Below are positions 21,169 through 62,673 of a DNA stretch of 64,000 nt, piece after piece; position 1 is the stretch's first letter, and each line of letters begins with the position of its first letter. Below the pieces are notes generated by a model that did not search any database, was not told where the DNA came from, and saw only the letters and a program-made list of their open reading frames with translations. Source of the stretch: an uncultured Nitrospiraceae bacterium (GTDB lineage Bacteria > Nitrospirota > Thermodesulfovibrionia > Thermodesulfovibrionales > Dissulfurispiraceae); the NCBI GenBank assembly GCA_963705105.1, contig CAVPIW010000010.1, forward strand, positions 160,001 through 224,000, written 5' to 3'. Both the position numbers and the translations under genes were made by a program.

Positions 21169-21425
21169 GATCCCTGACCACGCAAATTTTCCCGCCGAAC
21201 GTGAGTGTCCGCAATTTCCGCACATCAGGGGGACTAACGTTTTGCCTCAGTTCGGCATGTTTACATAATGGATTTTTGTACACCCTTCGGTCTCTCCCTG
21301 CTGCATCGCTTTCCATCGTATACTTACTGGCAGAACGGCTTTGTTGCCAATAGCATCCTAATCAACAAATAGCAGATTATCGAGGGCTTTTCCAATTATA
21401 ATTGCTAATAGATTAATTAATTCTG

Positions 21426-25216: not shown

Positions 25217-25261
25217 TGTAACATTCCTGTAACATTCCTGTAACATTGGAAATGGTATGCT
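25217..25261 (+). promoter_or_regulatory. Pho-box-like promoter 1
   Basis: TGTAACATT at 25217, 25228, 25239 (11-bp period); TGG-TATGCT -10 at 25256. Confidence 0.8.
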
Positions 25262-25290: not shown

Positions 25291-25500
25291 ATGGAGAAGA
25301 GCTACCTCTTGTGCCCCTACCTGAAAGGATCCGTCGACGGCGCCCTCTGCAATGTTGTCAGGGATTTCATCAAGAAAATGGATGATGTGGACATCCGCAT
25401 GTGCATGGGCAGGCATTTCGAGTCCTGCTATTTCTACCATATGAAGATCAGGAGCGCCATTGCCGCCCATTCCTGCGGGCCCGCGCTCGAACTCAACTGA
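25291..25500 (+). CDS. Small four-Cys protein, paralog 1
   Basis: GAGGTG RBS; CPYLKGSVDGALC-x17-C-x7-CYFY. Confidence 0.7.
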   Translation: MEKSYLLCPYLKGSVDGALCNVVRDFIKKMDDVDIRMCMGRHFESCYFYHMKIRSAIAAHSCGPALELN

Positions 25501-25556
25501 AGGGTCTTTCGAAAACTGAATAATCTCCTTTTTTCCCGGGGAATCGCCGCGTCATC

Positions 25557-26792
25557 ATGAACTCCCGATTCCTCTGGGGGGTTGCAACCTCCGCTTTTCA
25601 GCTCGAAGGCTCCCCTTATGCCGACTGGTCGTCCTGGGACCTCTCCGTCGGTGACAACCCCGACATCACGGACCATTACAACCTCTACCGGCAGGACCTT
25701 CGCCTGCTCAGGGCCCTCGGGGTCAACGCCTATCGCTTCTCTCTCGAATGGAGCAGAATCCAACCCGGTCAGGACGCCTGGGACCGGAAGGCCATCGACC
25801 ATTACCAGGAGATGATCGACATCCTCAACGACCACGGCATCGAGCCCATGGTCACGATCCACCACTTCACCCATCCCCTCTGGTTCATACAGCGGTACCC
25901 CTGGCACGACGACAAATCCGTCGACTGGTTCCTCCGGTACGTCGACAGGCTTATGGCGTCGGTCCGGGACGTCAAATACTGGATCACCTTCAACGAGCCC
26001 TACGTGCTCCTCCTCGGCGGCTATCTCGAAGGGTGCATGCCGCCCGGCCTGAGAGATGCGGACCTCGCCCTTGCGGCCCTGAAAAACATTCTGACATGCC
26101 ATGGACGTGCCTATGAGATCATTCACAGCCGCCGTCCCGACGCGCTGGTGAGCGTCGCCCACAACATGGCCGCCCTCGCTCCCTGGCGCCGGTGGAACCC
26201 CCTCGACAGGGCACTTGCAACGATTGCCGGCTCCTTCTACAACCACTCCCTGCTCGACGCGTTCAAGTCCGGCAGCGTCCACGTGAAATTCCCCTTCCGC
26301 AAGGCCACCGACATGATGGTGCCGATTCAGGGGAAGCTCGATTTTTTCGGCATCAACTATTACACCAGGGTGCACCTGCGGTTCAATCCCCTGAAAAAGA
26401 TGGGCGTCGAACTCCGGCACAGGGATATCGACGGATACGGCCTGACGGACCTCGGATGGGAAATCCATCCCCATGGCCTCGATCATGTCATCAGGCAGGC
26501 ATCGGGTCTCGGCGTTCCCATGATGATCACCGAGAACGGCATTGCCACCCATGACAGTCGGAAGAAGATACGGTTCATGAAGCGCCACGTGGACGTCATT
26601 GAAAAATGCATAAAGAAGGGATTCGACATCAGGGGATATTTTTACTGGTCCCTCATCGACAACTACGAGTGGCTCCAGGGTCTCGATGCCCGGTTCGGCT
26701 TGTACACCGTCGATTACTCGACCCTCCGGCGCCGTCCCACCACGGCAGCCACATACTATTCCTATCTCATCAGAAGCAGGTCTTTCACGTAG
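25557..26792 (+). CDS. Glycoside hydrolase family 1
   Basis: FLWGVATSAFQLEG, YRFSLEWSRI, TFNEP acid/base, ITENG nucleophile, WSLIDNYEW. Confidence 0.93.
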   Translation: MNSRFLWGVATSAFQLEGSPYADWSSWDLSVGDNPDITDHYNLYRQDLRLLRALGVNAYRFSLEWSRIQPGQDAWDRKAIDHYQEMIDILNDHGIEPMVTIHHFTHPLWFIQRYPWHDDKSVDWFLRYVDRLMASVRDVKYWITFNEPYVLLLGGYLEGCMPPGLRDADLALAALKNILTCHGRAYEIIHSRRPDALVSVAHNMAALAPWRRWNPLDRALATIAGSFYNHSLLDAFKSGSVHVKFPFRKATDMMVPIQGKLDFFGINYYTRVHLRFNPLKKMGVELRHRDIDGYGLTDLGWEIHPHGLDHVIRQASGLGVPMMITENGIATHDSRKKIRFMKRHVDVIEKCIKKGFDIRGYFYWSLIDNYEWLQGLDARFGLYTVDYSTLRRRPTTAATYYSYLIRSRSFT

Positions 26793-26848
26793 TCCCGTTC
26801 CTTCAGGCGTCTTATCAATATCGATCGCCAGACCACCTATCCACGTCC

Positions 26849-26926
26849 CGCAACACACCTGTAATCAAGTCTTCTTCATTTCGTAACCGCCTCTTAATCC
26901 TGCCGTAACCAAGACTTTTGTATCAT
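26849..26926 (+). promoter_or_regulatory. Pho-box-like promoter 2
   Basis: CGCAAC 26849, TGTAAT 26860, CGTAAC 26882, CTTAAT 26893, CGTAAC 26904; TATCAT at 26921. Confidence 0.7.
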
Positions 26927-26934
26927 GCAGACAG

Positions 26935-27627
26935 ATGCTGCTTTGCGACTTTCACATTCACACCACTTATTCCGACGGCCTCGTCGACCTGAGGAGGACC
27001 GTCGATCTTTTCGGCCAGGCAGGTTTCGACGTCATCGCCATTACGGACCATGTGGTGAGCAGCAACGGGTCCTTCGGCAAGCTCGCCCGGACGTTCAAAT
27101 TCAGCGTCGATGAGCATAATTTCGGACGGTACGTGGAGCACATCCGCAAAGAGGCAGAGCGGGCCTGGACCAAATACGGCCTCCTGATCATCCCCGGCAT
27201 CGAGATCACAAAAAACTCTATCTCGGCGGAAAACTCGGCGCACATCCTGATCATCGACATCAAGGATTTCATTCCCGCCTCCTGGGGATACGATGAGATC
27301 TTTCAGGAGGCGAAGAGGCAGGACGCCCTCAGCATCGCCTGCCACCCCCACTACATGTCGGAATTCGCAGTCCGCGACACCCTCTATCTCTGGAAAAACC
27401 GTGACAAGTACGCTCCTCACATCGATGCCTGGGAGATCGCCAACAGGGATGACGTGTTCAACGTCATCAGCCTCAAGAAATACCCCTATATCGCCGGCAG
27501 CGATTTTCACCGTCCGCGCCATCTCTATTCATGGAAGACGCTGCTGAACTGCGACAAGGATGTGGAGTCCGTGAAACAGTGCATCCGCCACAACAGGGGC
27601 GTTGCCATCACTCTCTTCAGAAAATGA
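26935..27627 (+). CDS. PHP domain phosphoesterase
   Basis: DFHIHTTYSDG, AITDH, IPGIEIT, CHP, GSDFH. Confidence 0.9.
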   Translation: MLLCDFHIHTTYSDGLVDLRRTVDLFGQAGFDVIAITDHVVSSNGSFGKLARTFKFSVDEHNFGRYVEHIRKEAERAWTKYGLLIIPGIEITKNSISAENSAHILIIDIKDFIPASWGYDEIFQEAKRQDALSIACHPHYMSEFAVRDTLYLWKNRDKYAPHIDAWEIANRDDVFNVISLKKYPYIAGSDFHRPRHLYSWKTLLNCDKDVESVKQCIRHNRGVAITLFRK

Positions 27628-27843
27628 ACGCTGTAGTTGCATACAAAGGCGGGGCGAAGCGCCTCAAAGCCTTGCTGAAGGCGACGATACGCATTGTCAG
27701 CTTCGTGTTTCAGGATTCCACTCTTTGTGTTATCGACCATTGGTGTAAAGTTCGTCTGCCCTTTCGATACAGGTGTCGCCGCAGCAAGGTTTTCGGCGCA
27801 TGCACCCCGCCTTTCCGGGAAGCGCATGCAACGATAAGGTGAA
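27628..27843. repeat. MITE-like repeat copy
   Basis: GTAGTTGCATACAAAGGCGGGGCGAAGCGCCTCAAAGCCTTGCTG...CCCCGCCTTTCCGGGAAGCGCATGCAACGATAAGGT. Confidence 0.85.
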
Positions 27844-27860
27844 TAAATGAAGGAGGTCCC

Positions 27861-29075
27861 ATGGAGATATTCCTGATCTTTGCCGTCTTGTCCCTGTTCG
27901 CCCTGGTCGCCTATGGCCTGCAGATACGCGCCGCACGCGCAGTCCTGGTTGAGGAGAAGGCATCTGAAGCCGTGGCGGTCAGCCGTGACCGGACCTGTCC
28001 ACCCGTTTCGATCCTCAAGCCCCTCAAAGGGCTGGACGACAACCTCTTCGACAACCTCGAGAGTTTCTGTGTGCAGGACTACCCGGAATACGAGGTCATC
28101 TTCTCCCTTCAGGACAGGAACGACCAAGCCTGCAAGGTGGCCGAAAAGGTCAGGGAAAGGCATCCTGACAAAAACATCACCATCATCACGGAGAAAACCA
28201 ATGCGGGCCTCAACCCCAAGATAAACAACCTTATCCCGGCCTACCGCGTTTCCCGTTACGACCACGTTCTGATAAGCGACAGCAACGTCCTGGTCGGCAG
28301 GGACTATCTGCGGGAAATCATGGGCCGCATGGCCGATCAGCGTGTCGGCCTCGTCTCGAACCTCATCAAAGGCACGGGAGGACGCACCATCGGGTCCGTC
28401 CTGGAAAACCTCCATCTCAACTCCTTCATCATGGGGAGCGTCTGTTTTCTCGACCGGTCCCTGGGCATGCCCTGCGTCGTCGGCAAGTCCATGCTTTTCC
28501 GCAAGGACGACCTTGAAAAGATGGGCGGCCTGTGGTCCTTCAAGGATGTCCTCGCCGAGGATTACATGATGGGCAAAAGGATGCATGAAGCGGGCAAGAA
28601 GGTCGTGCTGTCCGGCTACATGGTGCAGAATGTGAATGATTACTGGGGGTTCCGCAGGTTCCTGAACAGGCACACGCGCTGGGGCAAGCTGCGCTGGAGG
28701 ATCGGCGGTATCAAATATGTGTCGGAGATCCTCACGAATGCGGTCTTCCTCTCCTCCATGCCCCTCATCTTCTGGGAGACGTCCCTCATGACATGTTCCC
28801 TCGCGGCGGCCGTGAGTTCGGTGAAGATCATGGGAGACCTCTACATCGGCAGAAAAATTCAGGCAGGCATGAACAGCGCGCTCTATCTCCTCTCGCCGGT
28901 CAAGGATCTCATCATCGGCATCCTTTGGTTCATCCCCCTCTTCAGCAGGACCGTCGTCTGGCGGGGCAACAGGTACTCCGTCGGGAAGGATTCCGTTCTC
29001 TCGCCCTGCGGTGCCGCCGCTACCCGGGATAGAAGAAGCCGTCTGATCGTCGCCATCAGGACACGTTTCGCCTGA
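27861..29075 (+). CDS. GT2/GT21 membrane glycosyltransferase (ceramide glucosyltransferase/HpnI-like)
   Basis: VSILKPLKGLD, QDYPEYEV, NPKINNL, ISDSNV, LAEDY, RHTRW; N- and C-terminal TM helices. Confidence 0.88.
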   Translation: MEIFLIFAVLSLFALVAYGLQIRAARAVLVEEKASEAVAVSRDRTCPPVSILKPLKGLDDNLFDNLESFCVQDYPEYEVIFSLQDRNDQACKVAEKVRERHPDKNITIITEKTNAGLNPKINNLIPAYRVSRYDHVLISDSNVLVGRDYLREIMGRMADQRVGLVSNLIKGTGGRTIGSVLENLHLNSFIMGSVCFLDRSLGMPCVVGKSMLFRKDDLEKMGGLWSFKDVLAEDYMMGKRMHEAGKKVVLSGYMVQNVNDYWGFRRFLNRHTRWGKLRWRIGGIKYVSEILTNAVFLSSMPLIFWETSLMTCSLAAAVSSVKIMGDLYIGRKIQAGMNSALYLLSPVKDLIIGILWFIPLFSRTVVWRGNRYSVGKDSVLSPCGAAATRDRRSRLIVAIRTRFA

Positions 29076-29145
29076 TCGGACCTGTTTTTCAATACTTTTC
29101 CACATTCCGTCTGCATAACAAAGACATCTGCAGCAATCGGGTCCC

Positions 29146-29200
29146 TGTAACGCAATTGTAAAGTCCGCTTCATCTTCCTGTAACCGGGCTTCCCTAAAAT
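29146..29200 (+). promoter_or_regulatory. Pho-box-like promoter 3
   Basis: TGTAAC 29146, TGTAAA 29157, CTTCAT 29168, TGTAAC 29179; TAAAAT at 29195. Confidence 0.7.
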
Positions 29201-29317
29201 AACGGCAAGACGAAAGGAGGTGGTGCGGCGATTTCGTCAAGGGAGAAACGAGGCGGCAGCACCCGCGGTGTCTTTTGGACTCCGCAGAACATCACATGAA
29301 TCACACAAGGAGGAACG

Positions 29318-31075
29318 ATGAAAGACTTCGCAAAACGCACACTGAGCACGGCCCTCGGCGCCCTGCTCACCCTGTCCCTGGCCGCTGCCCCGGCCCTGAG
29401 CGCAGACGACAAGCCTTTCCAGAAGAAGAACACCAAGTGGACGTCCGGCGACTTCCACCAGCACACCCTCTACACCGACGGATCGACGACCTTCGACTTC
29501 GTCATGGGCAAGAGCAACGAGTTCGACCTCGACTGGTGGGCCAACTCAGAGCATGGAGGGGGCAGAAACAGGGACGGCAACGGTCTTTTCTGGGATGCAC
29601 GAAATCCCAACCCCATCGTTGGTTGTCCGGCCGCGTCCGGAGGGCACCAGATCATGTGGCGCTGGCAGAGCCTGCGTGACTTCGTGTACCCTGACATCCT
29701 CCGGAACCGCTCCCTCTATCCTGAGAAAAAGATCTTTTCCGGCTTCGAGTGGAACGTGCCCGGTCACGAGCACTGCAGCACCGGCATCGTGGCCGACGAT
29801 GCAAGCGCCATCAGCGCCTTCGAGTACATGTTCGACGCGTCCGACAACGACATAAGCCGGAATGGAGAGGTAACACCTTACGGGATTCTCCAGAAGATGA
29901 ACGGCAGGACGTATGTCGGCTGCACTGGAGCAAGCAAGTCCTTCCCCGATAGACATGCCGATGCCGTCAGGGGCTGCGCCTGGATGCAGGATCAGTATAA
30001 ACCGGCAGTTCCCGGAAAGGCGACGATAGACAACGGCTGGATCGTCTTTGCCCACATCGAGCGCGACGGTTCCTGGAACCTCGTCAGCGGCGGCGGGTAC
30101 AACGTCGAACACTTCCGTGATTTCAACAACGCCGGTCCCGACGTGTGCTTCGGCTTCGAGGGGGCGCCCGGGCACCAGGTCAACAATGACCGCGGTTTCG
30201 GCAATGCAGTCACCTGTGATGCTTCGGGCGTCTGCACCTCCGACGACTTCGGCGGCACCTACGGAGGAGCAGGATTCTACACGGCAAAGGTCGGCGGCCT
30301 CTGGGACGCGCTTCTCGGTGAGGGCCGCAGGTGGTTCAACTTTGCCAGCTCCGACTACCACCGCCACTATACGGCAGGAGGCGACGACTTCTTCCCCGGG
30401 GAGTACCAGAAGAACTGGGTAAAGGTTGTCGACACGAACGCCGACGGCGACTATGACCTGAACGAGATCGCAAACGGCCTCCGCTCGGGCAACGTGTTCC
30501 ACGTCATGGGAGACCTCATCAGCGTCCTGGAGTTCAATGCAAAGTCCCGCGATCAGGAAGTCGAGATGGGCGGTGAGCTGAAGGCCGGCAAACCGATCAA
30601 CAATCTTCAGATCAAGATCAGGTTCAAGAGCCCCGTGATGAACAACTGCGCCGTTGACGGCGCCTTCATCACTTCCTGCGTTTCGCCCGTCGTCGATCAT
30701 ATAGATCTGATCGCCGGTGAAGTCACGGGCAAGGTCGATCCGTCAAGCCCTGAATACATGAATGCAATGAACCCGACGGCAAAAGTCATCGCCAGCTTCA
30801 CCGGCAAGGACTGGGAGAAGGACGACGAGGGCTACAACGTGATCGTTCACCACATCAAGGATGTGAACAGGAGCATGTATTTCAGGCTCCGCGGCACGAA
30901 CGTGCCCTGCGGTACGGAGTTCGAGACGAATCCTGCCACCCCGCTGCCCTCGGCCGACTACTGCAGCCCGCTGGCCGACGCGCTCGTGACGCAGAACATC
31001 GGCATCGACGGCGCGCAGGAGGCGTGGAACGACCTCTGGTTCTACTCGAACCCCATTTTCGTCTACGTAAAATAG
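29318..31075 (+). CDS. Secreted PHP-fold metallohydrolase, putative phosphoesterase
   Basis: Signal peptide; GDFHQHTLYTDG, NSEHGG, GFEWNVPGHEH, FAH, SSDYH, C-terminal WFYSNPIFV. Confidence 0.75.
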   Translation: MKDFAKRTLSTALGALLTLSLAAAPALSADDKPFQKKNTKWTSGDFHQHTLYTDGSTTFDFVMGKSNEFDLDWWANSEHGGGRNRDGNGLFWDARNPNPIVGCPAASGGHQIMWRWQSLRDFVYPDILRNRSLYPEKKIFSGFEWNVPGHEHCSTGIVADDASAISAFEYMFDASDNDISRNGEVTPYGILQKMNGRTYVGCTGASKSFPDRHADAVRGCAWMQDQYKPAVPGKATIDNGWIVFAHIERDGSWNLVSGGGYNVEHFRDFNNAGPDVCFGFEGAPGHQVNNDRGFGNAVTCDASGVCTSDDFGGTYGGAGFYTAKVGGLWDALLGEGRRWFNFASSDYHRHYTAGGDDFFPGEYQKNWVKVVDTNADGDYDLNEIANGLRSGNVFHVMGDLISVLEFNAKSRDQEVEMGGELKAGKPINNLQIKIRFKSPVMNNCAVDGAFITSCVSPVVDHIDLIAGEVTGKVDPSSPEYMNAMNPTAKVIASFTGKDWEKDDEGYNVIVHHIKDVNRSMYFRLRGTNVPCGTEFETNPATPLPSADYCSPLADALVTQNIGIDGAQEAWNDLWFYSNPIFVYVK

Positions 31076-31098
31076 ACTGACGTCCCTTCCTCGATAAT

Positions 31099-31135
31099 GC
31101 CGGGGTGGAAATCTCCACCCCGGCGCTGAAAAAAG
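31099..31135 (+). terminator. Probable terminator hairpin
   Basis: GCCGGGGTGGA-AATC-TCCACCCCGGC right after the stop codon; no clear U tract on this strand. Confidence 0.5.
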
Positions 31136-31147
31136 ACCAATCCGTGA

Positions 31148-31202
31148 TGTCACGCAATCTTCACCTTCCTGAAATACTCCTGTAACATCCCTCTGGTAAT
31201 CT
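31148..31202 (+). promoter_or_regulatory. Pho-box-like promoter 4
   Basis: TGTCAC 31148, CTTCAC 31159, TGAAAT 31170, TGTAAC 31181; TGG-TAATCT at 31197. Confidence 0.7.
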
Positions 31203-31236
31203 TGGAATAGACAAAGATCAAGCAAGGAGGTATCTC

Positions 31237-31443
31237 ATGATGAACGCCGAGGCGTTAAAACCCGCCGGATTCAGAGTCGAAAGGGAATACGAGTTCACAT
31301 GCCCGTATTGCGACGACTTGACGAACATCTGCGGGGCCTCTCTCTCATCCATGGCGATCACCTGGAAGAAGAGGGTCCTGCTGTGCAACAGCGAGAATCA
31401 CGACAACTGCCCCGTCTATCTCGCAAAGTGCCTGAGGGGATAG
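31237..31443 (+). CDS. Small four-Cys protein, paralog 2
   Basis: AAGGAGG RBS; CPYCDDLTNIC-x17-C-x7-CPVY. Confidence 0.75.
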   Translation: MMNAEALKPAGFRVEREYEFTCPYCDDLTNICGASLSSMAITWKKRVLLCNSENHDNCPVYLAKCLRG

Positions 31444-31446
31444 GCC

Positions 31447-31644
31447 ATGTGCCCCAACTTCAATCTTATCGAGGGGATCTGCGAACTGGCCGGGATCGAG
31501 CCGTCGCGGATCGGCTGCGTCGGCGAGTGCACGTGCTTCTGCAACGACTGGGACGAGTGCAGGGTCTATGAGTCCCAGTTCGTGCTGCATTGCGAGGAAT
31601 ACAGTCATTTCCTCGCGGTGACGGAATTTGTAACGGAATTGTAA
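31447..31644 (+). CDS. Small four-Cys protein, paralog 3
   Basis: Starts 3 bp after paralog 2; CPNFNLIEGIC-x17-C-x7-CRVY with extra Cys residues. Confidence 0.7.
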   Translation: MCPNFNLIEGICELAGIEPSRIGCVGECTCFCNDWDECRVYESQFVLHCEEYSHFLAVTEFVTEL

Positions 31645-31688
31645 CAATCCCGTAATCAGCCTGTAAAAGTAATGTGTTTCAATATAAG
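31629..31688 (+). promoter_or_regulatory. Pho-box-like promoter 5
   Basis: TGTAAC 31629, TGTAAC 31640, CGTAAT 31651, TGTAAA 31662; -10 less clear. Confidence 0.7.
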
Positions 31689-31719
31689 CATGGCAACGGT
31701 GTTCTCCATGACAGAGGCG

Positions 31720-31994
31720 ATGGCAGGCGACGAAATACAGTGCCCCCGGTGCTGTTCCTACGTGCTGTACCGTTACGGCAAGAACCCTTGGGAAAGCAGC
31801 GCTTTCTCTGTCTCATGTGCGGACGGCAATTCGCACCGGAACGGACCAGGATTGCGATGAAGGAAAAGCCGGCCTGCCCGAAGTGCGGAAGGCCGATGCA
31901 TCTCTATAAAAAAGAGGAGAACATTGTTCGGTTCCGTTGTGCCCATTATCCCGAATGCAAGACATTTTTAAAAAAGAATAAAGAGGAGGAGTGA
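31720..31994 (+). CDS. Double zinc-ribbon protein (InsA-like plus topoisomerase C4-like finger), one-base frameshift near 31789
   Basis: CPRCCSYVLYRYGKNP | GKQRFLCLMCGRQF...CPKCGRPM...RCAHYPECK across two frames. Confidence 0.65.
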
Positions 31995-31995
31995 A

Positions 31996-32367
31996 GTGAG
32001 CTACTACATGCACCACGTTCCCGGAAGGCTGAGAGTCAAATCGCCGCTCATTAAGGGCCACGAGCGCAGGGCCGATGAAGTCCGCTCCCAGATCGAATCC
32101 CTCGGCGGTGTCACATCGGCATCGGTCAACACCCTGACGGGCAGCGTCGTCATCAATTACGACTCGTCGGCCATAGAGGCGCGGCAGATCCAGGACACAC
32201 TGAACCGGACGGGATACTTCGACACCTCCAGGGCGGTGTCCAACGATGAATATATTCACAGCATGGCATCAAAGGCAGGCCAGGTCATCGGCAAAGCCGT
32301 TTTCGGAGCCTTTGTGGAAAAGGCATTCGAAGGCTCCGCCCTGTCTCTGCTGGCTGTATTGATATAA
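31996..32367 (+). CDS. HMA2 domain protein
   Basis: HHVPGRLRVK...GVTSASVNTLTGSVVINYD. Confidence 0.85.
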   Translation: MSYYMHHVPGRLRVKSPLIKGHERRADEVRSQIESLGGVTSASVNTLTGSVVINYDSSAIEARQIQDTLNRTGYFDTSRAVSNDEYIHSMASKAGQVIGKAVFGAFVEKAFEGSALSLLAVLI

Positions 32368-32404
32368 ACTACCCCCCTCCTATCGGAGTCACTCACTCCG
32401 AACA

Positions 32405-32438
32405 AGAAAGCCCGTCCCCCGACGGGCTTTCGCGTTTC
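32405..32438 (+). terminator. Rho-independent terminator
   Basis: GAAAGCCCGTC-CCCC-GACGGGCTTTC hairpin followed by GCGTTT. Confidence 0.6.
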
Positions 32439-32441
32439 AAA

Positions 32442-32990
32442 GTTAACCTTATCGTTGCAATACACTTCCGGGAAAGGCGGGGCTGGGGTGAATGCGCCGA
32501 AAACCTTGATGCGGCGACACCTGTATCAAAACGAAAGATGAACTATTCGCCAATGGTCGATGACACAAAGAGTGGAATCCTGTAGGGGCCGTTCCCCGAA
32601 CGGCCCGACATTAATGACGCTTCCCATACGGATCATTTCAGGCAAAGGGCTGAACAAAATTAACCTTTTACGGACACTCACACTGACACTGTTTTTCAGA
32701 GCGCTTCGCCACGCCTTTCCATGCAACTGAAAGGTTAATCAATGGTCATGGTATCCAGAATAACGTCGCACGAGGATAGGGCATGCCTTCTTCGCAAAAT
32801 AAACTACCTTTCCTCTTGTGCAAATCTTGTTCTGGAGATAGACGCTGTCGCAAGCACACTGTGCGGCTCCCGCTGCGGCTTGCGCCTTCGACTCCCGCCG
32901 CCGTTCACATTACCCGTGAATTTTGCTTCAGAAACCACACCCTATCCTCGTCTTCAAAGTTGCACCGTACGATATTTTGGACAGGGGTGA
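32442..32990. repeat. Composite of MITE-like, REP and second-family repeat modules
   Basis: TTAACCTTATCGTTGCAATAC...TGCAACTGAAAGGTTAA (32442-32738) enclosing a GTAG REP and ACACTG hexamers, then a copy of the 17780-18105 family. Confidence 0.8.
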
Positions 32991-33040
32991 TCACGGGTAT
33001 ACAAAAAAATGAGGCACGAGGATAGGCGATGATCTTGGAA

Positions 33041-34243
33041 TCAGGACGGGAAGACGCTCTTGAGAAGGGCCACCTTGTCCGTCACCTCCCAGGGCAGGCC
33101 GATATCCATGCGGCCCACGTGGCCATAGGCTGCGAGCTTCCTGAAAAAGCCGCCCTTGACCGTGGCAGGGAGGTAGCGCAGGTTGAATTGCCTGAGAATG
33201 CCCGCCAGGCGGAAGTCGAAGTGCTCCTCTACGGCCGCTGCGATCTCCCGGTCTGAGACCCGTCCGGTCCCGAAGGTCTCCACCTGAACGCTAACGGGAC
33301 GGGACAGACCGATGGAGTAGCTCAACTGGACCTCGCACTCGCTTGCAAGACCGGCGGCGACGACGTTCTTCGCCGCATACCGCGCCGCATAGGCCCCGAT
33401 CCGGTCGATCCTTTTCGGGTCCTTGCCGCTCAGTGCCGCCCCGCTGTGGCGGGAGTACTCTCCGTATGTATCGATTGCGTTCTTCCGCCCCGTGAGCCCC
33501 GAGTGGACGGAGGGGCCCCCGACGATGAAGGGGCCGTCGGGATTGATGAAAATCCTCGTCTTGTCGTCGGGCCTGACCTGTTCGTCATGAAAAACGGGGT
33601 CGATGACTGCATCCCTGATGTCTTTCCTCAATTGGGCGAGGGAGGGAGTCTCGGGTGTGTTCTGGCTCGCTATGACGGCGAGGCTGTGAATCCTGAAGGG
33701 TTTCCGGTTCCGGTACTCCACTCCCACCTGGGTCTTTCCGTCCGGCGCGAGATAGGGCAGGAATTTCTGCAGCCTGGCAGACGTCAGTCTTCTCGCAAGC
33801 TTGTTGGCTATCCAGATGGGCAGAGGCATAAATGCCGACGTCTGGTCACAGGCGAAACCGAACACGGTCACCTGGTTCCTGACGGGGATGAGATCGATCT
33901 CGTCGTCCGTCAGCTCCTTTTCGTTGAAACAGCAGTACTCGTCCTGCTGCATCTCTTTCAGGCTCGTAAGTATGCTGCAGCTCTTGCCGTTGAATGAGGG
34001 ATGATCGTAGCCGACCTGGCTGATGACCTTACGCGCGATATAGGGGAAATCGACGACGGCGCTCGAACTGAAGCGGGCGGCGATGAAAACGATGGACGTC
34101 GAGACGGCGCACTCGGCGATGACGCTCGCAAAGGGGTCCTGCTGCAAAAAATGGTCAACGATGGCGTCGCTGATCTGGTCGCAGAGTTTATCGGGATGTC
34201 CTTCCGTCACGGATTCGGACGTGAACATGAAATCCTCTTTCAT
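33041..34243 (-). CDS. metK: Methionine adenosyltransferase (divergent, probably a secondary copy)
   Basis: FTSESVTEGHPDKLCDQISD, PDGKTQV, SGLTGRK, GAALSGKDPKRIDR, AAYGHVGR; canonical GAGDQG appears as PVRNQV. Confidence 0.9.
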   Translation of the reverse strand: MKEDFMFTSESVTEGHPDKLCDQISDAIVDHFLQQDPFASVIAECAVSTSIVFIAARFSSSAVVDFPYIARKVISQVGYDHPSFNGKSCSILTSLKEMQQDEYCCFNEKELTDDEIDLIPVRNQVTVFGFACDQTSAFMPLPIWIANKLARRLTSARLQKFLPYLAPDGKTQVGVEYRNRKPFRIHSLAVIASQNTPETPSLAQLRKDIRDAVIDPVFHDEQVRPDDKTRIFINPDGPFIVGGPSVHSGLTGRKNAIDTYGEYSRHSGAALSGKDPKRIDRIGAYAARYAAKNVVAAGLASECEVQLSYSIGLSRPVSVQVETFGTGRVSDREIAAAVEEHFDFRLAGILRQFNLRYLPATVKGGFFRKLAAYGHVGRMDIGLPWEVTDKVALLKSVFPS

Positions 34244-34283
34244 AGATTGCCTCCTCTGGGTGGATTCAATGATGCCACGTCTC

Positions 34284-37200
34284 TCATGCAGCTTTCTCCC
34301 CTGCCTTCTTGGTCGCTTCATTGATGAGAAGCGGCATCACCGCCGCCCCGCCGATGACAGCGCCGTCGATGACCGAAATGGGGGCGATCCCGAGAAGACC
34401 ACGCAGCCCCGGAACGATGAGGGCAAGGGCCTGCAGGACCAGAGATCCGGCAACGGACGCGGTGAGGAAACGGTTCGGCGGGAGCGGCTGCATCCCGCCC
34501 GGCCCGGTGCTGTCAAAAATGCTGTGCCTCTCGGACCTGCAACTCAGGGCGTGCAGGATCTGCCCGATCGTGAGGCTCATGAACGCCATCGATCCGGCCC
34601 GTGGTCCCCGACCGTACCTGGCGACACCATACCCGTAGGCCGCCATGGTACCCGCAGAGAGGACAGCCGACTCGAAGGTGATCCGCCTGAAGTCCGAGGG
34701 CTTGACGATGGGCTCCCGGGGGTCCCTCGGGGGCATGCTGAGCACGTCGGGCTCGGGCGGCTCCAGGGCGAGGGCGAGACCCGGTGCGATGTCCGAGACG
34801 AGGTTGATCCAGAGGAGCTGCATCGGGCTGAGAGGATGACCGAGGCCTCCCGCAATGGACAGGAACATGACCATGATCTCGCTGAGGTTCGTGGACAGGA
34901 GAAAATGAAGAGACTTCCTGATGTTGTTATAGATCGTCCTGCCCTGACTGACGGCGATCACCAGTGTTTCGAGATTGTCGTTTTCGAGGACCACGTCAGC
35001 CACTTCCCTGGCGACGTCGGTCCCTGTGTGGCCCATGGCGACGCCGATGTCGGCTGCCTTGAGCGCAGGTCCGTCGTTGATGCCGTCGCCCGTCATGGCG
35101 ACGGTCCGGCCTGCCTTCTGGAGGGACTGCACGATCTCGAGCTTGTGGGCGGGACTGACCCGCGAGAAGACATGGACACGTTCGCAGAGCGCCGTCAGGA
35201 CCTCGGGAGGCAGCTGCGACAGGTTGCGCGAATCGAGGATCTCGAGCTGCTCCCCTTTGCTTAGGTCCAGCTCCTTTCCGATGGCCTGGGCCGTCGGCGT
35301 CTGGTCGCCCGTAATCATGACCGTGGCGATCCCCGCGCTGTGGAATTGACCGATCAGGTCCTTGACGCCGTCCCTGATGGGATCGGTCATGCCGACCATA
35401 CCGAGCCATGTGAGACCGTCGGATATGTCCTCATCGTCCGTTACGGGGAATGCCTCATCGGTATACGCGTAAGCCGCTCCGAGCACCCGCAGGGTCTCCG
35501 CGGCCATGTGCTCATTGGCGAGCTCGATGGTGAGACGGTTCTCGTCCGTCAGAGGGATTTTTTCGCCGTTCCTGAGCTGCCAGGAACAGAGGGCGAGGAC
35601 TTCCTGGGGGCTCCCTTTGACCGCCACCACCCGCCCCCTGCCGATGGCCGTATCATGATAGCTCACCATGAAGTTCCTCGTCTCGGAGCGGTGGACGATC
35701 CTGATAAGGGGAAACTTCTGCTTCACGTTCAGGACACTGACGCCCGAGTCGATGGCGAGGTGTATGAGGGCGTTTTCCGTGGGGGAGCCTGTAACGACAT
35801 ACTTCCCCTCCTGACCGGCGACGTCGCTCTCGTTGCAGAGCACGCCCACATGGATGAGCCGGAGAAGTTCATCGCACCGGTAGGGGTTGAGAAACTCCGC
35901 GCCGTCGTGATACTTCCCGCCGGCCACGCTGATGCGCCGCGATCCGGAATGAACCTCGCGGACGGTCATCCTGTTGTACGTAAGCGTCCCTGTCTTGTCC
36001 ATGCAGATGGTCTGGACCGACCCGAGGGTCTCGACGGCTTCGAGGTGCCGGATGAGCACATGATGTCTTCGCATGTTCCTGATGCCGAGGGCGAGAGTGG
36101 TCGTGGCAACCGCGGGAAGGCCCTCGGGCACGGCGGCGACGGCGAGGGAGATCGAAGATTTGAGCATCTCGAGGAAACCGTATCCCCTCAGAAGGCCTAT
36201 GAGCATCACGAGCAGGCAGACCCCGCCGGAGATGATCACAAGCTGGTTGCTCATCCGGTCAAGCTGCCTCTCCATGGGAGTCTCCGGAGGTCTTGCCTCG
36301 CCCACGAGCGCCTGGATCATGCCGATTTCGGTGTACTTGCCCGTTGCGACAACGACAGCGATGCCCTGCCCGCCCGTTGCCAAAGTTCCCATGTAGACCA
36401 TGTTCGTCCTGTCGGCGAGGGCAATGTCGTTTCTCGGAAGAGACCCCGTCTCTTTCGTCACGGGCATGCTTTCACCTGTCAGTGCCGACTCGTCGACGCT
36501 CAGGTGCCTCGCCTCGATGAGCCGGGCATCGGCGGCGATATAGCTGCCGGGCTTCAACACGAGCAGGTCGCCGGGCACGATGTCCTCGGCCCTCACCTCC
36601 TGCACTGTCCGGTCCCTGACAACGGACGCCGACGGCCTGACAAGAGTCTTCAGGGAATGGATCGTCTTTTCTGACTGGCTTTCCGTGACGTAACCGATGA
36701 CAGCATTCGTCGCGACGACGCCTGCGATGACAAGGGCATCGGCGATGCCGCCCGTCAGGATGGACACGGCCGCCGCAACGCCGAGAAGAGCGACGGGAAG
36801 GGACTTGAACTGGCCGAGGAAGATGGAGAGGCCCGAGCGGGGTACCGATTCCGGGAGCAGATTGGGGCCGTATCGTTTCAGGTTGGCATTGGCCTGTTCG
36901 TCCGTCAGTCCCCGCGCGGAATCGACGTCGAAGGCGCGGACGACGGAAGAGGCTTCCAGAACATGCCAGGACTGGACGGACTGGTCTTCAGCGTCAATGA
37001 TAAGTTTGCGGAGTTTCCTCCTGCTCCGGAGATGGCGACCCGGCTCGGGTTTCTGCGAAACCTCCGTTTCCGTCGTCGTCTGTCGGACGGCTCTCGACGG
37101 TCCCCCGCCGTTGCCCCCCTTCCTGTATTCGGAAACAATGACCTCCAGAACCGCCGCGATCGACTGCGGCGTATTCCCGGAGTTATAAATGACGAGGGCG

Positions 37201-37352
37201 TTCCCCGTCAGGTCGCTCACGGAGTAGTTGATTATGTCACGATGTTGCGCGAGCCTGCTTTCGAGAAACCGCCTGAGCTGACCGGACCGGAAGAGTCCGT
37301 CGATTTTATAACGGGCCCTTCCCCTGACGGCGGTGTGAATCGCCTTGACCAC
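34284..37352 (-). CDS. P-type cation ATPase (P2A, Ca2+-like) with N-terminal HMA2-like domain
   Basis: IHTAVRGRARYK N-terminus, LTGES, AVPEGL, DKTGTLT, KGSP, MITGD, MTGDGINDGPALK, LWINLVSD. Confidence 0.92.
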   Translation of the reverse strand: MVKAIHTAVRGRARYKIDGLFRSGQLRRFLESRLAQHRDIINYSVSDLTGNALVIYNSGNTPQSIAAVLEVIVSEYRKGGNGGGPSRAVRQTTTETEVSQKPEPGRHLRSRRKLRKLIIDAEDQSVQSWHVLEASSVVRAFDVDSARGLTDEQANANLKRYGPNLLPESVPRSGLSIFLGQFKSLPVALLGVAAAVSILTGGIADALVIAGVVATNAVIGYVTESQSEKTIHSLKTLVRPSASVVRDRTVQEVRAEDIVPGDLLVLKPGSYIAADARLIEARHLSVDESALTGESMPVTKETGSLPRNDIALADRTNMVYMGTLATGGQGIAVVVATGKYTEIGMIQALVGEARPPETPMERQLDRMSNQLVIISGGVCLLVMLIGLLRGYGFLEMLKSSISLAVAAVPEGLPAVATTTLALGIRNMRRHHVLIRHLEAVETLGSVQTICMDKTGTLTYNRMTVREVHSGSRRISVAGGKYHDGAEFLNPYRCDELLRLIHVGVLCNESDVAGQEGKYVVTGSPTENALIHLAIDSGVSVLNVKQKFPLIRIVHRSETRNFMVSYHDTAIGRGRVVAVKGSPQEVLALCSWQLRNGEKIPLTDENRLTIELANEHMAAETLRVLGAAYAYTDEAFPVTDDEDISDGLTWLGMVGMTDPIRDGVKDLIGQFHSAGIATVMITGDQTPTAQAIGKELDLSKGEQLEILDSRNLSQLPPEVLTALCERVHVFSRVSPAHKLEIVQSLQKAGRTVAMTGDGINDGPALKAADIGVAMGHTGTDVAREVADVVLENDNLETLVIAVSQGRTIYNNIRKSLHFLLSTNLSEIMVMFLSIAGGLGHPLSPMQLLWINLVSDIAPGLALALEPPEPDVLSMPPRDPREPIVKPSDFRRITFESAVLSAGTMAAYGYGVARYGRGPRAGSMAFMSLTIGQILHALSCRSERHSIFDSTGPGGMQPLPPNRFLTASVAGSLVLQALALIVPGLRGLLGIAPISVIDGAVIGGAAVMPLLINEATKKAGEKAA

Positions 37353-37361
37353 GTACTCTGC

Positions 37362-38054
37362 TTACTCGGCCGAACGCCTGCCCCTCTTGACCGTCACCTC
37401 GGGAGCTTCAACGGCTTCAGCGGCCGGGGGAGTAGGGGGAGCTGCCTGTCCTGCGGTCTGCTTCGGGAGGGCCGCAGCCGCAATCTCCTTGACCCCTTCG
37501 ACGACGCCGACGAGCATGTCTTTGACGGCCCTGACAGCGGTGTTCCCGACGGAGCCGGCAGCCTCGATGGCGCCGCCGACGGCGATCTTGGCAACTTCTT
37601 CGACGTTGCCGCCCACTTCCTTCGTCGCCTCGATGACGCCGTCGACGGCCCTGCGGGCGACGAGGCCGACATCAGCGCCGATCTCGGCGGCGCCTTTCAC
37701 AGCGCCTTTCACGGTCTGACTCGCAACGCTCACGACATCGCCGCCGATGTCGCTCACGCCCATGATCAGACCCTTGGCAACGCTCTTCGTGCTCAGAATG
37801 AGGCCTGTACCCACTTCTTCGGTCGCCTGGATGGCGCCTTTGACGACATCCTTGGTGACGTTAATGCCCTCGCCGGCGACTGAGCCCGTCGCCTTAAGGG
37901 TATTCGATACGGTGCTCCGGACGAGGCTCACGATTTCGGCCTCGATCTCGTTGATCCCCTTCAGGCTGCTGACGATGCCCTCCTTGACAGTCGTTCCCGC
38001 CTTTCCGATACCCTCGCTGATTTCCGGCTTTCCCGCTGCCGTTTCCCCCTTCAT
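37362..38054 (-). CDS. Hypothetical Gly/Ala/Val-rich protein with 22-residue amphipathic repeats
   Basis: GGAGG RBS; tandem units KGAIQATEEVGTGLILSTKSVA, KGLIMGVSDIGGDVVSVASQTV, KGAVKGAAEIGADVGLVARRAV, DGVIEATKEVGGNVEEVAKIAV, GGAIEAAGSVGNTAVRAVKDML. Confidence 0.8.
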   Translation of the reverse strand: MKGETAAGKPEISEGIGKAGTTVKEGIVSSLKGINEIEAEIVSLVRSTVSNTLKATGSVAGEGINVTKDVVKGAIQATEEVGTGLILSTKSVAKGLIMGVSDIGGDVVSVASQTVKGAVKGAAEIGADVGLVARRAVDGVIEATKEVGGNVEEVAKIAVGGAIEAAGSVGNTAVRAVKDMLVGVVEGVKEIAAAALPKQTAGQAAPPTPPAAEAVEAPEVTVKRGRRSAE

Positions 38055-38140
38055 GTCAAACCTCCTCTTTTGCCGGGCACCGAGTAAATCCACCCGGCTG
38101 CTTATTATTCGGCATTGCTGGATTGGTACGCGTAACGAAC

Positions 38141-38195
38141 ATGTTACCCGACCCCTGTTACAGAAATGTTACGGGAGCGTTACATGTGCGTTACA
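38141..38195 (-). promoter_or_regulatory. Pho-box-like promoter 6 (minus strand)
   Basis: GTTAC at 38157, 38168, 38179, 38190 on the plus strand; minus-strand TAACAT -10 at 38146-38141. Confidence 0.75.
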
Positions 38196-38288
38196 TTGAA
38201 TGACTGCCTATGCAAAGATCAGATATATGCAATATCGCAAAAAATATTGCGGGGCACACGGCTGGAAACCGGCATATGCCGTTCGCCC

Positions 38289-38761
38289 TTATTCCGGCTT
38301 CGACTTGAGAAAAACGTTGAAGGCATACCAGAATGCGGTATACCACGCCGGAGCGGCGAAGTTGCCCTTCGCGATCTGGTAGACGCCGATCCCGAGGAGG
38401 GAAAGAAAGGACAGAGTCCAGAGGTCGATCGCGCCGCCCGTCAATCCCTTTATCTTGCTGTTCAGTTCCGTCATTTCCCCCGACACCTGCAAACGCAGAC
38501 TGCCGGGTCTGTCTTCCATGACCTTAAATATGCGTTTCGTTTGCGCCTTTCTGATGATGGTATCGGCCTCGGCGGGATGGGTGAACAAAAACAGAATACT
38601 TCCGGTAATCGGATTCGTCATAACACTTTCGATGCCGGGCACATTGGAAAACCGGTCCGGCAGTGAGAAGAAAAAAGAAGAATCCCCCCTTTTCCCGGGA
38701 CCCTGATCCTCAGTCTCCCGGGCATCCGGTGAACGATAAAGGCGGTTGGAAGATCAGCCAC
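38289..38761 (-). CDS. HMA2 domain membrane protein, one-base frameshift in a homopolymer near 38688
   Basis: IVHRMPGRLRIRVP | FSNVPGIESVMTNPITGSIL...APAWYTAFWYA across two frames. Confidence 0.7.
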
Positions 38762-39044
38762 CCTGGGGGCCTCCCTCGACTGTATCGGGACTGATCTGCG
38801 TCTGCTCCTCCGCCATTTCCGCCTTTGCCTCGGCGACGATGTCCTCAACCATCTCCCCGACTTCCGCAAAGGTCTCCTTGCCTCTTTCGTACAGCATCAA
38901 CCCGCCCTTTATGGCAGCCTTGGCGAGCGGTTTCGCGATGCTCGCAACGACGGGTACGACGACCGGTGCCAGTACGGACGTGCCGATGCCTATGGCGAGG
39001 CCGGTCAGTATGTTGCCCTTCAAACCATTATCAAAGAGTCCCAT
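38754..39044 (-). CDS. DUF5132 family protein
   Basis: GLAIGIG..VLAPVVVP...KPLAKAAIKGG..LYE....FAEVGE..EDIVAEAKAE; GGAGG RBS. Confidence 0.8.
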   Translation of the reverse strand: MGLFDNGLKGNILTGLAIGIGTSVLAPVVVPVVASIAKPLAKAAIKGGLMLYERGKETFAEVGEMVEDIVAEAKAEMAEEQTQISPDTVEGGPQGG

Positions 39045-39199
39045 GAATACCTCCTCCGGATTGCCGTCCATTGCAACATGGTTCAAATTCCTTTTTATGA
39101 CTGATTATATACCCGGCGATTCCCTTCAGCAATATCTTTCGTCATGCGTTACCTACATCTCAAGGGCATGCAGAATTTCACTTCTTACCCTCCGTCCCT

Positions 39200-39255
39200 C
39201 TTCATGAAACTGTAACGCAGATGTCATCATCCTGTAACGGACCATATGTTTTAAT
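39200..39255 (+). promoter_or_regulatory. Pho-box-like promoter 7
   Basis: CTTCAT 39200, TGTAAC 39211, TGTCAT 39222, TGTAAC 39233; TTTAAT at 39250. Confidence 0.75.
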
Positions 39256-39279
39256 ATCCGAGGAGGCTGTCGGAACGAA

Positions 39280-39534
39280 ATGGTTTCCTACATCGTGAAA
39301 CATCACATACCGGGCCGCATACGGATCGAGATTCCTCTTTTAAGAAAAGTCCCGTCGAAGGAACTCAGGAAGCTTTCCGATATCGCCGTTCCTGAGGGCG
39401 TCACGAACCTGCGCGTCAATCCCCTGAACGGCAATATCATCATCACCTATGATCAGAAGATGATTGACATACTGAAATGGCTCAACACCATGGCAACGGA
39501 CTCCAGGATTCTGGAAATAGCAAACGCCACATAA
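39280..39534 (+). CDS. HMA2 domain protein
   Basis: HHIPGRIRIE...GVTNLRVNPLNGNIIITYD. Confidence 0.8.
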   Translation: MVSYIVKHHIPGRIRIEIPLLRKVPSKELRKLSDIAVPEGVTNLRVNPLNGNIIITYDQKMIDILKWLNTMATDSRILEIANAT

Positions 39535-39553
39535 GAATGAAAGGGACGAAAAA

Positions 39554-39787
39554 ATGAAAAACCAGGCGGTTGAAGAAAAAAGAGTGATAACAAAGCCGTC
39601 CTGCCCCCATCTCATGAAATCGGTCATCCCGTCCTGCCGGGCTGCGGACGAACCCTACGCGCCCAGCCCCTTTCAGATGACGGAATACTGCAGGACGCGG
39701 AACCACCGGAAATGCCCGTTCTTCATGAACCTGTCAAAGCCGGCCTTTGACCGGTCCGTTGAAGGATGGCTCGTCAGCATCCTGTAA
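39554..39787 (+). CDS. Small four-Cys protein, paralog 4
   Basis: CPHLMKSVIPSC-x17-C-x7-CPFF. Confidence 0.7.
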   Translation: MKNQAVEEKRVITKPSCPHLMKSVIPSCRAADEPYAPSPFQMTEYCRTRNHRKCPFFMNLSKPAFDRSVEGWLVSIL

Positions 39788-39838
39788 CGGAATCATCATC
39801 ATCCTGTAACATTACTGTAATATGTGCAATGGTATACT
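39783..39838 (+). promoter_or_regulatory. Pho-box-like promoter 8 (pstS)
   Basis: TGTAAC 39783, CATCAT 39794, TGTAAC 39805, TGTAAT 39816; TGG-TATACT at 39833. Confidence 0.85.
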
Positions 39839-40914: not shown

Positions 40915-40949
40915 GGGAGGCGGGTGACCCGCCTCCCCGCCTTTCTTTT
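40915..40949 (+). terminator. Hairpin after pstS
   Basis: GGGAGGCGGG-TGA-CCCGCCTCCC followed by CGCCTTTCTTTT. Confidence 0.6.
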
Positions 40950-41001
40950 AACATTCCTGTAACATTCTTGTAACATTCCTGTAATATTAAACAGTCAAAA
41001 T
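40947..41001 (+). promoter_or_regulatory. Pho-box-like promoter 9 (pstCAB-phoU)
   Basis: TTTAAC 40947, TGTAAC 40958, TGTAAC 40969, TGTAAT 40980; CAAAAT at 40996. Confidence 0.75.
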
Positions 41002-60915: not shown

Positions 60916-62673
60916 TCATGCAACGGGCAGGTATATCTTCACCTTCGTGCCTTTTCCGAAGGCGCTCTCGATCTTCATCTCCCAGCCATGGGCCCTGACG
61001 AGGTGCTTGACGATGGCGAGACCGAGGCCGGTGCCGCCCATGGTCCTGGAGCGGGCGGGGTCGACGCGGTAGAAGCGCTCTCCCAGTCTCGGCAGGTGCT
61101 TCTGCTGAACGCCGATACCTGTATCCCGCACGAAGAGGACGAGCCGCCCCGCGTCCTCTTCGGCTCCCAGGGTGATTTCGCCCTTCTCCGTGAATTTGAT
61201 CGCATTGTCGACGAGATTGGTCAATATCTGGATGAGCCTGTTCCTGTCCGCCTGTATCGTGCCGATGCCCTCCGGGAAGGATGTCCCGACGGCGAGCCCC
61301 TTTTCCGCCGCCTTGCTCCTGAGAAGGGCCAGCACAGTGTCGGCGACGTCGATGATGTCGATTTCCGCTTTCTCGACCTTGATGACGCCGAGCTCTATCC
61401 TGGATATCGTCATGAGGTCGTTAATGAGGCTGTTGATCCGCTCGCTGTTCGCCTTGATCATCCCGGCGAACCTGATGGCGTTCTCCCTGTCGTCAATGGC
61501 CCCTTCGAGCAGCGTCTCGGCGAACCCCCTGATGGCCGTTATGGGCGTCTTCAGTTCATGGGAGACGTTGGCCACGAAGTCCTTCCTGATCTCCTCGAGC
61601 TTTTTCATCTGCGTGATGTCGTGAAGAACGGCGACGAATCCTGCGAGGTCGCGGTCACGGTAAAACAGAGGTGACACCTTGGCGACCAGGTATCTCTCAT
61701 CGGGGAGGTCGAGCTTGAGCTGGACCGATGCCGGCGAGAGGCTGGTCCTGACATGATCCACGAGGTCCGCAAAATCGTGGCTCCTCACGAGTTCCAGGAA
61801 CTGCTTTCCCGCCGGGTCGGTATTGCCGAAATACTCCGACGACGAGGCGCTCGACAGCAGGACCGTCCCCTTCGAGTCGGTGATGAGGAGGGCATCGGGC
61901 ACGCTCTTGAGGATCAGGCCCAGGCGGTTCTTCTCCTCTTCCTTTTCGCTCATGACGGATTTCAGCTTTTCCGTCATGGTATTGAAATTACGGGCGATCT
62001 CCTCGAATTCCCGTCCCCCTTTCAGGAAAAGCTTCCCGCTGAAATCCCCCCCGGCGAGGGACTGGGAAAACCCCCTCATCTCGCCGATCAGCTTCCTGAG
62101 CCGTTCTATCTGGAGGATGGAGAGGATGCCCGTCGACAGCAGGACGATGCTGACGATGACGATGAGCATGAATCTTAGATCGTTGACGGCACGGTCGATC
62201 TCTTCGAGAGGGACCGCCATCCTGATGAAGCCCTGAACGTCTCCGTCTCTCGTTATTCTCCTGGCGATATAGAGATAGTCATGCCTCGTCGTCTCGCTGA
62301 GTCTGACCGAAATCCCTGTGGCCGAGAGAAGAGCTTCGACGATCTCGCTCCTGCCGGCATGATTCTCCATCTGCGACGAATCGGTGTCCGAATCGCCGAT
62401 GACCACCCCGTCACCCCTGATAACGGTGATCCGGGCGCCTGTCGTCTCCTTCAGCCTCTTGCAGAGGTCGTCGATCTTTCCCTGCCCGAAGGGGACGATA
62501 TCTTCGAGAAGTCCGAGCTGGACGACGAGGCTTTTCTTCAGGTCCTCTTCCCGCCTCTCCCTGACCGCCTCGGTGATGAATATCTCGATCAGGGCGATTG
62601 ACAGGACGGTGAGGATCACGTAGATCAGGATGATCCGTGTCAGCATGTCTCTTTTCATCTTGAATAAAATCAT
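60916..62673 (-). CDS. phoR: Phosphate regulon sensor histidine kinase (HAMP-PAS-HisKA-HATPase)
   Basis: MENHAGRSEI, RKDFVANVSHELKTP, NLVDNAIKF, ERFYRVDPARSR..GGTGLGLAIVKH. Confidence 0.9.
   Translation of the reverse strand: MILFKMKRDMLTRIILIYVILTVLSIALIEIFITEAVRERREEDLKKSLVVQLGLLEDIVPFGQGKIDDLCKRLKETTGARITVIRGDGVVIGDSDTDSSQMENHAGRSEIVEALLSATGISVRLSETTRHDYLYIARRITRDGDVQGFIRMAVPLEEIDRAVNDLRFMLIVIVSIVLLSTGILSILQIERLRKLIGEMRGFSQSLAGGDFSGKLFLKGGREFEEIARNFNTMTEKLKSVMSEKEEEKNRLGLILKSVPDALLITDSKGTVLLSSASSSEYFGNTDPAGKQFLELVRSHDFADLVDHVRTSLSPASVQLKLDLPDERYLVAKVSPLFYRDRDLAGFVAVLHDITQMKKLEEIRKDFVANVSHELKTPITAIRGFAETLLEGAIDDRENAIRFAGMIKANSERINSLINDLMTISRIELGVIKVEKAEIDIIDVADTVLALLRSKAAEKGLAVGTSFPEGIGTIQADRNRLIQILTNLVDNAIKFTEKGEITLGAEEDAGRLVLFVRDTGIGVQQKHLPRLGERFYRVDPARSRTMGGTGLGLAIVKHLVRAHGWEMKIESAFGKGTKVKIYLPVA

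Follow-up and report, generated by a model that had tools for sequence, protein, structure and literature searches.

What might four small cysteine-rich proteins be doing among the phosphate genes of an uncultured bacterium? The question is raised by a stretch of 64,000 nucleotides (hereafter the window) from an uncultured Nitrospiraceae bacterium (GenBank assembly GCA_963705105.1, contig CAVPIW010000010.1, positions 160,001 to 224,000), in which a first-pass annotation had pointed to four short open reading frames (ORFs) with a common cysteine motif behind pho-box-like promoters. Our answer is that they belong to a real, undescribed family of small proteins, putative regulatory accessories, which we call the Cys4 family after its four conserved cysteines. 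As for what the family does, we suggest, with a probability of roughly 0.42, that it is a metal-bound accessory module of two-component signalling and that the members found here, which represent its subfamilies A to D, are PhoB-induced modulators of the Pho system. The four genes are:

25291..25500, plus strand: Cys4 micro-protein of subfamily B, 69 amino acids, assigned by ORF, motif, profile and tree
31237..31443, plus strand: Cys4 micro-protein of subfamily C, 68 amino acids, with a conserved C-terminal FLAKxLRR-type helix
31447..31644, plus strand: Cys4 micro-protein of subfamily D, 65 amino acids, 8 Cys, acidic, 3 nt after the subfamily C gene
39554..39787, plus strand: Cys4 micro-protein of subfamily A, 77 amino acids, with its stop codon inside the pstS box array

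All four lie on the plus strand and carry the motif that had been reported for them. After the initial C-P the first spacer varies (x10 in 25291, x8 in 31237, x8 in 31447, x9 in 39554), and the rest, C-x17-C-x7-C-x2-[YF], is common to all. The earlier remark that they otherwise share little sequence holds as well, the other three being 16-21% identical to the first (25291). When the 4.2-Mb genome (19 contigs) is scanned in six frames, the strict motif occurs six times, four times in the window and twice on contig C12, and every occurrence is a family member by profile. The profile finds nine copies in the genome; the five outside the window are on C12 (three), on C10 beyond the window and on C6. 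The window ORFs are devoid of any hydrophobic segment, their maximum 19-residue hydropathy being 0.95.

In an alignment of 61 family members the four cysteines are invariant (61/61), and proline follows the first of them in at least 90%. The family profile finds 965 clusters at 50% identity. Judging from the sources of close homologues, the genome belongs to Nitrospirota, probably to Dissulfurispiraceae. Members are present in 123 of 301 genomes of the same phylum, Nitrospirota, and in 39 of 351 genomes of a second phylum, that of a Desulfuromonadales genome. The loci fetched around the hits hold 299 distinct copies, of which 245 retain the x17/x7 spacing and 268 have Y or F at position +3 after the last cysteine. 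Seven subfamilies take in nearly all of them (A 78, B 41, C 117, D 24, E 17, F 10 and G 8 copies), leaving 4 outside. Subfamily C is the most widespread of the Pho-linked members, and its 80 loci come from Nitrospirota lineages in 76 cases and from Desulfuromonadales lineages in 3, with 1 lacking a lineage assignment.

A tree of 85 copies (47 columns, weakly resolved) places each window copy with its own subfamily, a grouping that is partly circular since the groups themselves came from profiles. The window copies thus group with orthologues from other genomes and not with their neighbours, which makes them old paralogues and rules out a recent local duplication. The family had been described as expanded. 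A local expansion is not borne out; what we see instead is four old subfamilies standing together. All four are under purifying selection. The proportion of nonsynonymous differences (pN) is below that of synonymous ones (pS) in 1,081 of 1,081 pairs, kept at an amino-acid identity of at least 55%, and the median ratio of nonsynonymous to synonymous substitution rates (dN/dS) among unsaturated pairs is 0.15 for A, B and C and 0.10 for D. The window's own D copy is outside these pairs owing to its different spacer; an annotated close orthologue of it exists.

Short ORFs always invite the suspicion that they are spurious, untranslated frames in which the motif arose by chance. Here this is scarcely credible, given orthologues throughout the phylum, dN/dS values of 0.10-0.15, 965 clusters and a purine-rich, Shine-Dalgarno-like stretch before each of the four. 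Judging from these sequence features, the four micro-ORFs are almost certainly translated.

Known families do not account for the domain. The four ORFs were compared with Pfam and NCBIfam, and the 61 members with Pfam, NCBIfam and PHROGs; the best match, in one member, had an E-value of 0.0054, and no curated family was common to more than two of the 61. A sequence search of PDB with the family gave 0 matches at E 10, the ESM Atlas returned nameless Nitrospirota clusters with no usable named match, and literature searches of open-access full text found no paper on the family. The first-pass annotation did not recognise the family, and none of the models in Pfam, NCBIfam, PHROGs or PDB covers the Cys4 domain.

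Are these genes under phosphate control? The PHO box is defined as 11-nt direct repeats in PMC4415409, and in the window at least two 11-nt direct repeats stand at promoter position. TGTAAC-like half-sites in 11-bp repeats cluster there. With a matrix derived from 38 boxes that precede pst genes in relatives, the genome shows 24 sites of at least 12 bits, 14 of these in the window; the null level, taken as the 99.9th percentile of 3,000 random 300-nt segments, is 7.9 bits. The sites near the Cys4 genes are the following:

25217..25261, plus strand: pho-box-like array (three half-sites, 11-bp period) with a -10-like hexamer, 32.6 bits, promoter of the subfamily B gene and GH1
31169..31202, plus strand: weaker pho-box-like site with a -10-like hexamer before the C-D pair, 13.4 bits
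31628..31667, plus strand: pho-box-like array before the zinc-ribbon and HMA_2 genes (31674-32367), 26.5 bits
39210..39534, plus strand: pho-box-like array, 9.9 bits, and HMA_2 gene (39280-39534), the first gene of the subfamily A unit
39782-39822, plus strand: pstS promoter boxes, 27.7 bits
39782..44744, plus strand: pstS promoter boxes, pstS, second box array (40946-40988), pstC, pstA, pstB and phoU, with PstS and PhoU over the profile cut-off

The names pstC, pstA and pstB are those we presume from sequence and position. Each Cys4 ORF is, as had been claimed, the first or second gene behind a pho-box-like site, and the box scores exceed the null of 7.9 bits. It had also been stated that one copy stands directly before pstS. 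As to position this is right for the ORF at 39554-39787, but the copy sits upstream of the pstS promoter: since the ORF ends within the pstS box array, it is not transcribed from that promoter. Similarly, the last codons and stop of the subfamily D gene (31447-31644) overlap the pho box of the gene that follows. The five other copies in the genome have no pho box, their matrix scores being below the null (-3.5 to -20.8).

As in the textbook Pho regulon presented in PMC4415409, 11-bp repeats close to CTGTCAT precede pstS, pstC and the island genes, and the genome has pstSCAB-phoU and phoR. The locus differs in that the local consensus is TGTAAC, in that the island adds four Cys4 genes, and in that a phoB orthologue was not found in the assembly. 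We return to the last point below.

The association with phosphate genes is conserved. Counting copies whose context spans 1.2 kb or more, we find a Pho or island gene no farther than 4 kb away in 44/67 cases for A, 33/33 for B, 93/101 for C and 19/20 for D, compared with 1/13 for E, 0/9 for F and 0/7 for G. Of the role in the phosphate response which had been proposed for the family, a conserved Pho link is supported for subfamilies A-D; it does not extend to the family as such, E and F being unlinked and five copies in this very genome being without boxes. Island genes occur in 76 of the 80 subfamily C loci (31 with pst or phoU, 43 with GH1, PHP or GT21), and one of the four others, from Desulfuromonadales, is followed by psiE, a phosphate-binding-type protein and an OprO/P porin. 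The link of A-D outlasts shuffled gene order, with pst, phoBR and a GH1-PHP-GT21 trio staying near. In five loci phoB is at most 700 nt from subfamily A, and in six loci of the second phylum a box stands just upstream of the copy. The other conserved parts of the island in the window are:

25557..29075, plus strand: GH1 glycosidase, PHP phosphoesterase and GT21 glycosyltransferase (Pfam), a trio conserved in Pho islands across the phylum
33041..39086, minus strand: DUF5132, HMA_2, Ala-rich protein, P-type ATPase and metK, a conserved module of the island, which has a box of its own near 38174

These companions suggest another use for the micro-proteins, as metal chaperones or maturation factors for the metalloproteins of the island (PHP and CehA-like phosphoesterases, HMA_2, the P-type ATPase). 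In many genomes an HMA_2 gene precedes subfamily A, and B, C and D border both the GH1-PHP-GT21 trio and the zinc-ribbon/HMA_2 pair. However, there are copies in Pho context without those genes (for instance beside pstS or psiE alone, or in first place behind a box), and the copies outside Pho context adjoin regulators, not metal transporters. We consider such a chaperone role quite unlikely.

What the copies outside Pho context adjoin carries much of the argument for a role in signalling. A regulator gene lies within 1.4 kb of 30 of 50 non-Pho copies (subfamilies A-F, 1.4 kb of context), against 6.4% for 20,000 positions drawn at random from the present genome. The neighbours in these 50 include receiver proteins (22), sigma54 activators (15) and sigma70 factors (6), types confirmed by Pfam among 54 proteins, mainly from 123 candidates. 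In addition, the Cys4 domain is itself joined to signalling domains. It is fused N-terminally to REC. The same arrangement occurs with PilZ at 2 loci and with HisKA at 1, there within a long frame that includes an MFS domain as well; these two kinds of fusion are weaker matches without a subfamily assignment. The C6 copy of the present genome is fused to a GSU3473 domain, and GcvH-like proteins, with 62 homologues, carry two tandem N-terminal Cys4 domains with x20 spacers; those at seven loci (L170, L171, L174, L179, L181, L183, L186) are annotated merely as glycine cleavage H protein. The GSU3473 family (NF045719) and GcvH-like (PF01597) models are thus known partners of the Cys4 domain, but they cover the partner only and leave the Cys4 part unannotated. 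A word-index search for longer fused forms had found none among 2,313 candidates, which reflects the limit of its sensitivity, as fusions later appeared in a genome search. Finally, different subfamilies are often neighbours of one another, in heterotypic tandem pairs (C-B 21, C-D 14, C-A 14, D-B 6, F-A 5).

A small unannotated protein recurs directly after subfamily A in regulator clusters (L210:2011-2250, L214:4712-5005, L074:6374-6670). It follows F-A pairs in two of the three loci and has no Pfam match.

One could read the same neighbourhoods more simply. The Cys4 proteins might be plain downstream targets of adjacent regulators, small thiol- or metal-buffering stress proteins without any signalling feedback. 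In the window they follow pho boxes as first or second genes; elsewhere they lie directly downstream of kinase-regulator operons, and D has up to 8 Cys. On the other hand, a fixed spacing, conserved surfaces specific to each subfamily and repeated fusion to REC, PilZ and HisKA suit a binding module better. The regulator neighbours and the signalling-domain fusions support a regulatory role and add nothing to the buffering one, which we regard as unlikely.

Sigma70 genes among the neighbours bring to mind the WhiB-like (Wbl) proteins. If the Cys4 proteins acted in their manner, each would be a [4Fe-4S] protein sitting on region 4 of sigma70 and adjusting the promoter use of the PhoB-dependent polymerase. 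Both families are small, have several paralogues per genome and four invariant cysteines, and show a basic C-terminus in some members, which in subfamily C is a helix; the Cys4 family has conserved aromatic residues as well. A sigma70 gene adjoins 6/50 non-Pho copies as compared with a background of 0.3%. However, the 186 Pho-linked copies have no sigma70 gene within 1.4 kb. Wbl proteins, according to PMC6282962, are actinobacterial, contain G[V/I]WGG and a CxxC pair and measure 81-139 amino acids, whereas the Cys4 family follows C-x7-14-C-x17-C-x7-C, lacks G[V/I]WGG and is mostly 50-90 amino acids long. The G[VI]WGG motif is found in 0/299 domain cores, taken to 8 residues past the last cysteine, and in none of the four full window proteins, and there is no Pfam WhiB match. 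A protein that fails Wbl membership by motif and spacing may nevertheless work alike. For the Cys4 proteins we think this improbable.

Do the cysteines bind a metal? They probably do. Zinc is somewhat the better guess, an iron-sulphur cluster has perhaps a third of the chances, and simple disulfides would be a minor outcome. The AlphaFold2 model of the subfamily A core (mean predicted local distance difference test score, pLDDT, 77.5; predicted template modelling score, pTM, 0.53) consists of short strands followed by three short helices, so that the predicted fold of the family is a soluble hairpin-plus-helices mini-fold. With this model Foldseek gave no match at E 0.001, the best being at E 3.8 or worse, a result that does not make the fold a new one. 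VIA-align gave one match at Z 2.0 among 48,161 chains, which is non-significant. The non-significant matches are spliceosome/snRNP chains and residues 6-53 of TUT1, which we take to be small zinc fingers of the U1C/matrin type, and they provide only a hint towards zinc. Such fingers share the predicted hairpin-plus-helix layout of the Cys4 family, which differs in having four cysteines with long spacers and not CxxC...HxxxxxH. A zinc ribbon or rubredoxin (CxxC...CxxC) was considered and rejected, as there are no two CxxC knuckles, the core spacings in the window being 9-11, 17 and 7.

Several steps can be imagined for the signalling accessory that we favour. PhoB would induce subfamilies A-D. 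Each Cys4 protein would bind one metal centre through its four cysteines and would also attach to a component of a signalling system, for instance a receiver domain, the DHp domain of a kinase, or PhoU; tandem paralogues may act as heterodimers. In this way A-D would tune the response to phosphate starvation, and the other copies would serve other two-component systems. The parts of this proposal are not equally firm. PhoB-type control of A-D is likely in those relatives that have PhoB. Action by binding such a signalling partner, in which tandem paralogues may take part as heterodimers, is about as plausible as not, with the odds tilted slightly against it. A complex prediction for subfamily A with PhoB of the same relative and zinc scored 0.00 with an uncertain partner fold and is no evidence either way. 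A still wider generalization would be that the family provides portable, metal-cofactored signalling adaptors with paralogue-specific partners and heterodimers, feeding metal or redox input into two-component, sigma and cyclic diguanylate (c-di-GMP) circuits of anaerobic Nitrospirota and Desulfobacterota, its four members here being an unrecognised feedback layer of the Pho system. This we find doubtful.

A number of observations weigh against a modulator of the Pho system. Gene neighbourhood does not tell a modulator from a mere target of the regulator next to it. The subfamilies were set by our own profiles, the loci were fetched around profile hits and related genomes are not independent, and the background for regulator proximity was drawn from one genome. 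Fusion to a GcvH-like protein does not readily suggest signalling. Only a minority of the copies in relatives have a strict box in the 300 nt before them (A 3/67, B 8/33, C 20/101, D 0/20), so that most are either internal genes or preceded by weak boxes. No family match was obtained in nine relatives that have PhoB, and five of these lacked one in the survey of the phylum too; the family is therefore not needed for a Pho system. A further point is PhoB itself. The window does contain a kinase gene:

60916..62673, minus strand: PhoR-like histidine kinase, with no phoB adjoining

In the 19-contig assembly a phoB orthologue was not found, the best OmpR-type match being at E 6e-63 and about 40% identity, and a search for a phoB remnant saw none. 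The boxes described here may consequently be unread, or be read by another OmpR-type protein.

These points should be set beside what is found in the relatives. A PhoB-level match, at E 3e-97 or better, is present in 34 of 40 of them, and the family has a match in 0/6 of those without one (two of the six are <90% complete). The present assembly is 99% complete by markers and has phoR, phoU, pstSCAB and strong boxes; phoB may lie in an assembly gap or have been lost.

Small proteins that link signalling systems have precedents in the connectors CacA (63 amino acids, four conserved Cys), PmrD and IraP, which, as PMC3533512 describes them, are induced by one system and act on receivers or kinases. 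The Cys4 family differs from these in phylum, in having no family-model match among 61 members, in its up to 9 paralogues per genome and in its signalling-domain fusions, and its partner binding is putative. Whatever its mode of action, we have here a large domain family without a curated description, four subfamilies of which have stayed with the Pho island throughout a phylum. Should it modulate PhoBR or PhoU, a new regulatory layer would be added to a textbook system, possibly linking phosphate status with metal or redox status. Even without a mechanism, the seven subfamily profiles are of use to annotators, and the family is a marker for Pho islands in uncultured Nitrospirota. Since the proteins are 50-77 amino acids long and soluble by hydropathy, their metal content and partners would be cheap to test.

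The surroundings of the four genes deserve a few remarks. The GH1-PHP-GT21 trio is probably a unit for remodelling phospholipids into glycolipids. A double zinc-ribbon protein (31674-31994) stands behind a strong box and is next to subfamily B in many islands. The closest models of the P-type ATPase in the module at 33041..39086 are of type IIA, under the cut-off; metK is the name we presume for its last-listed gene, and BrnA is likewise our own reading of sequence. As a whole the conserved module at 31996-39534 (HMA_2 proteins with R-rich starts, a DUF5132 protein containing GxxxG, an Ala-rich repeat protein and the P-type ATPase) resembles the ferrosome (fez) clusters described in bioRxiv 10.1101/2020.01.10.902569, from which it differs in that the ATPase is nearest to type IIA, not P1B-6, and that pho-box-like sites stand in front. 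It may be a phosphate-linked metal-storage compartment.

Elsewhere in the window, a PIN-PhoH (PhoH2-like) gene at 55290-57084 on the minus strand has a 16.9-bit box about 330-420 nt upstream. An abundant intergenic repeat is seen at 27641-27860, at 32441-32720 and at many other sites, one copy lying between pstS and pstC; with some 500-600 BLAST pieces genome-wide per query, it is similar to a miniature inverted-repeat transposable element (MITE) or a repetitive extragenic palindromic (REP) sequence. Lastly, a methyltransferase gene at 20045-21225 on the minus strand, which we take to be of the cyclopropane-fatty-acid-synthase-like type, appears split over two reading frames.

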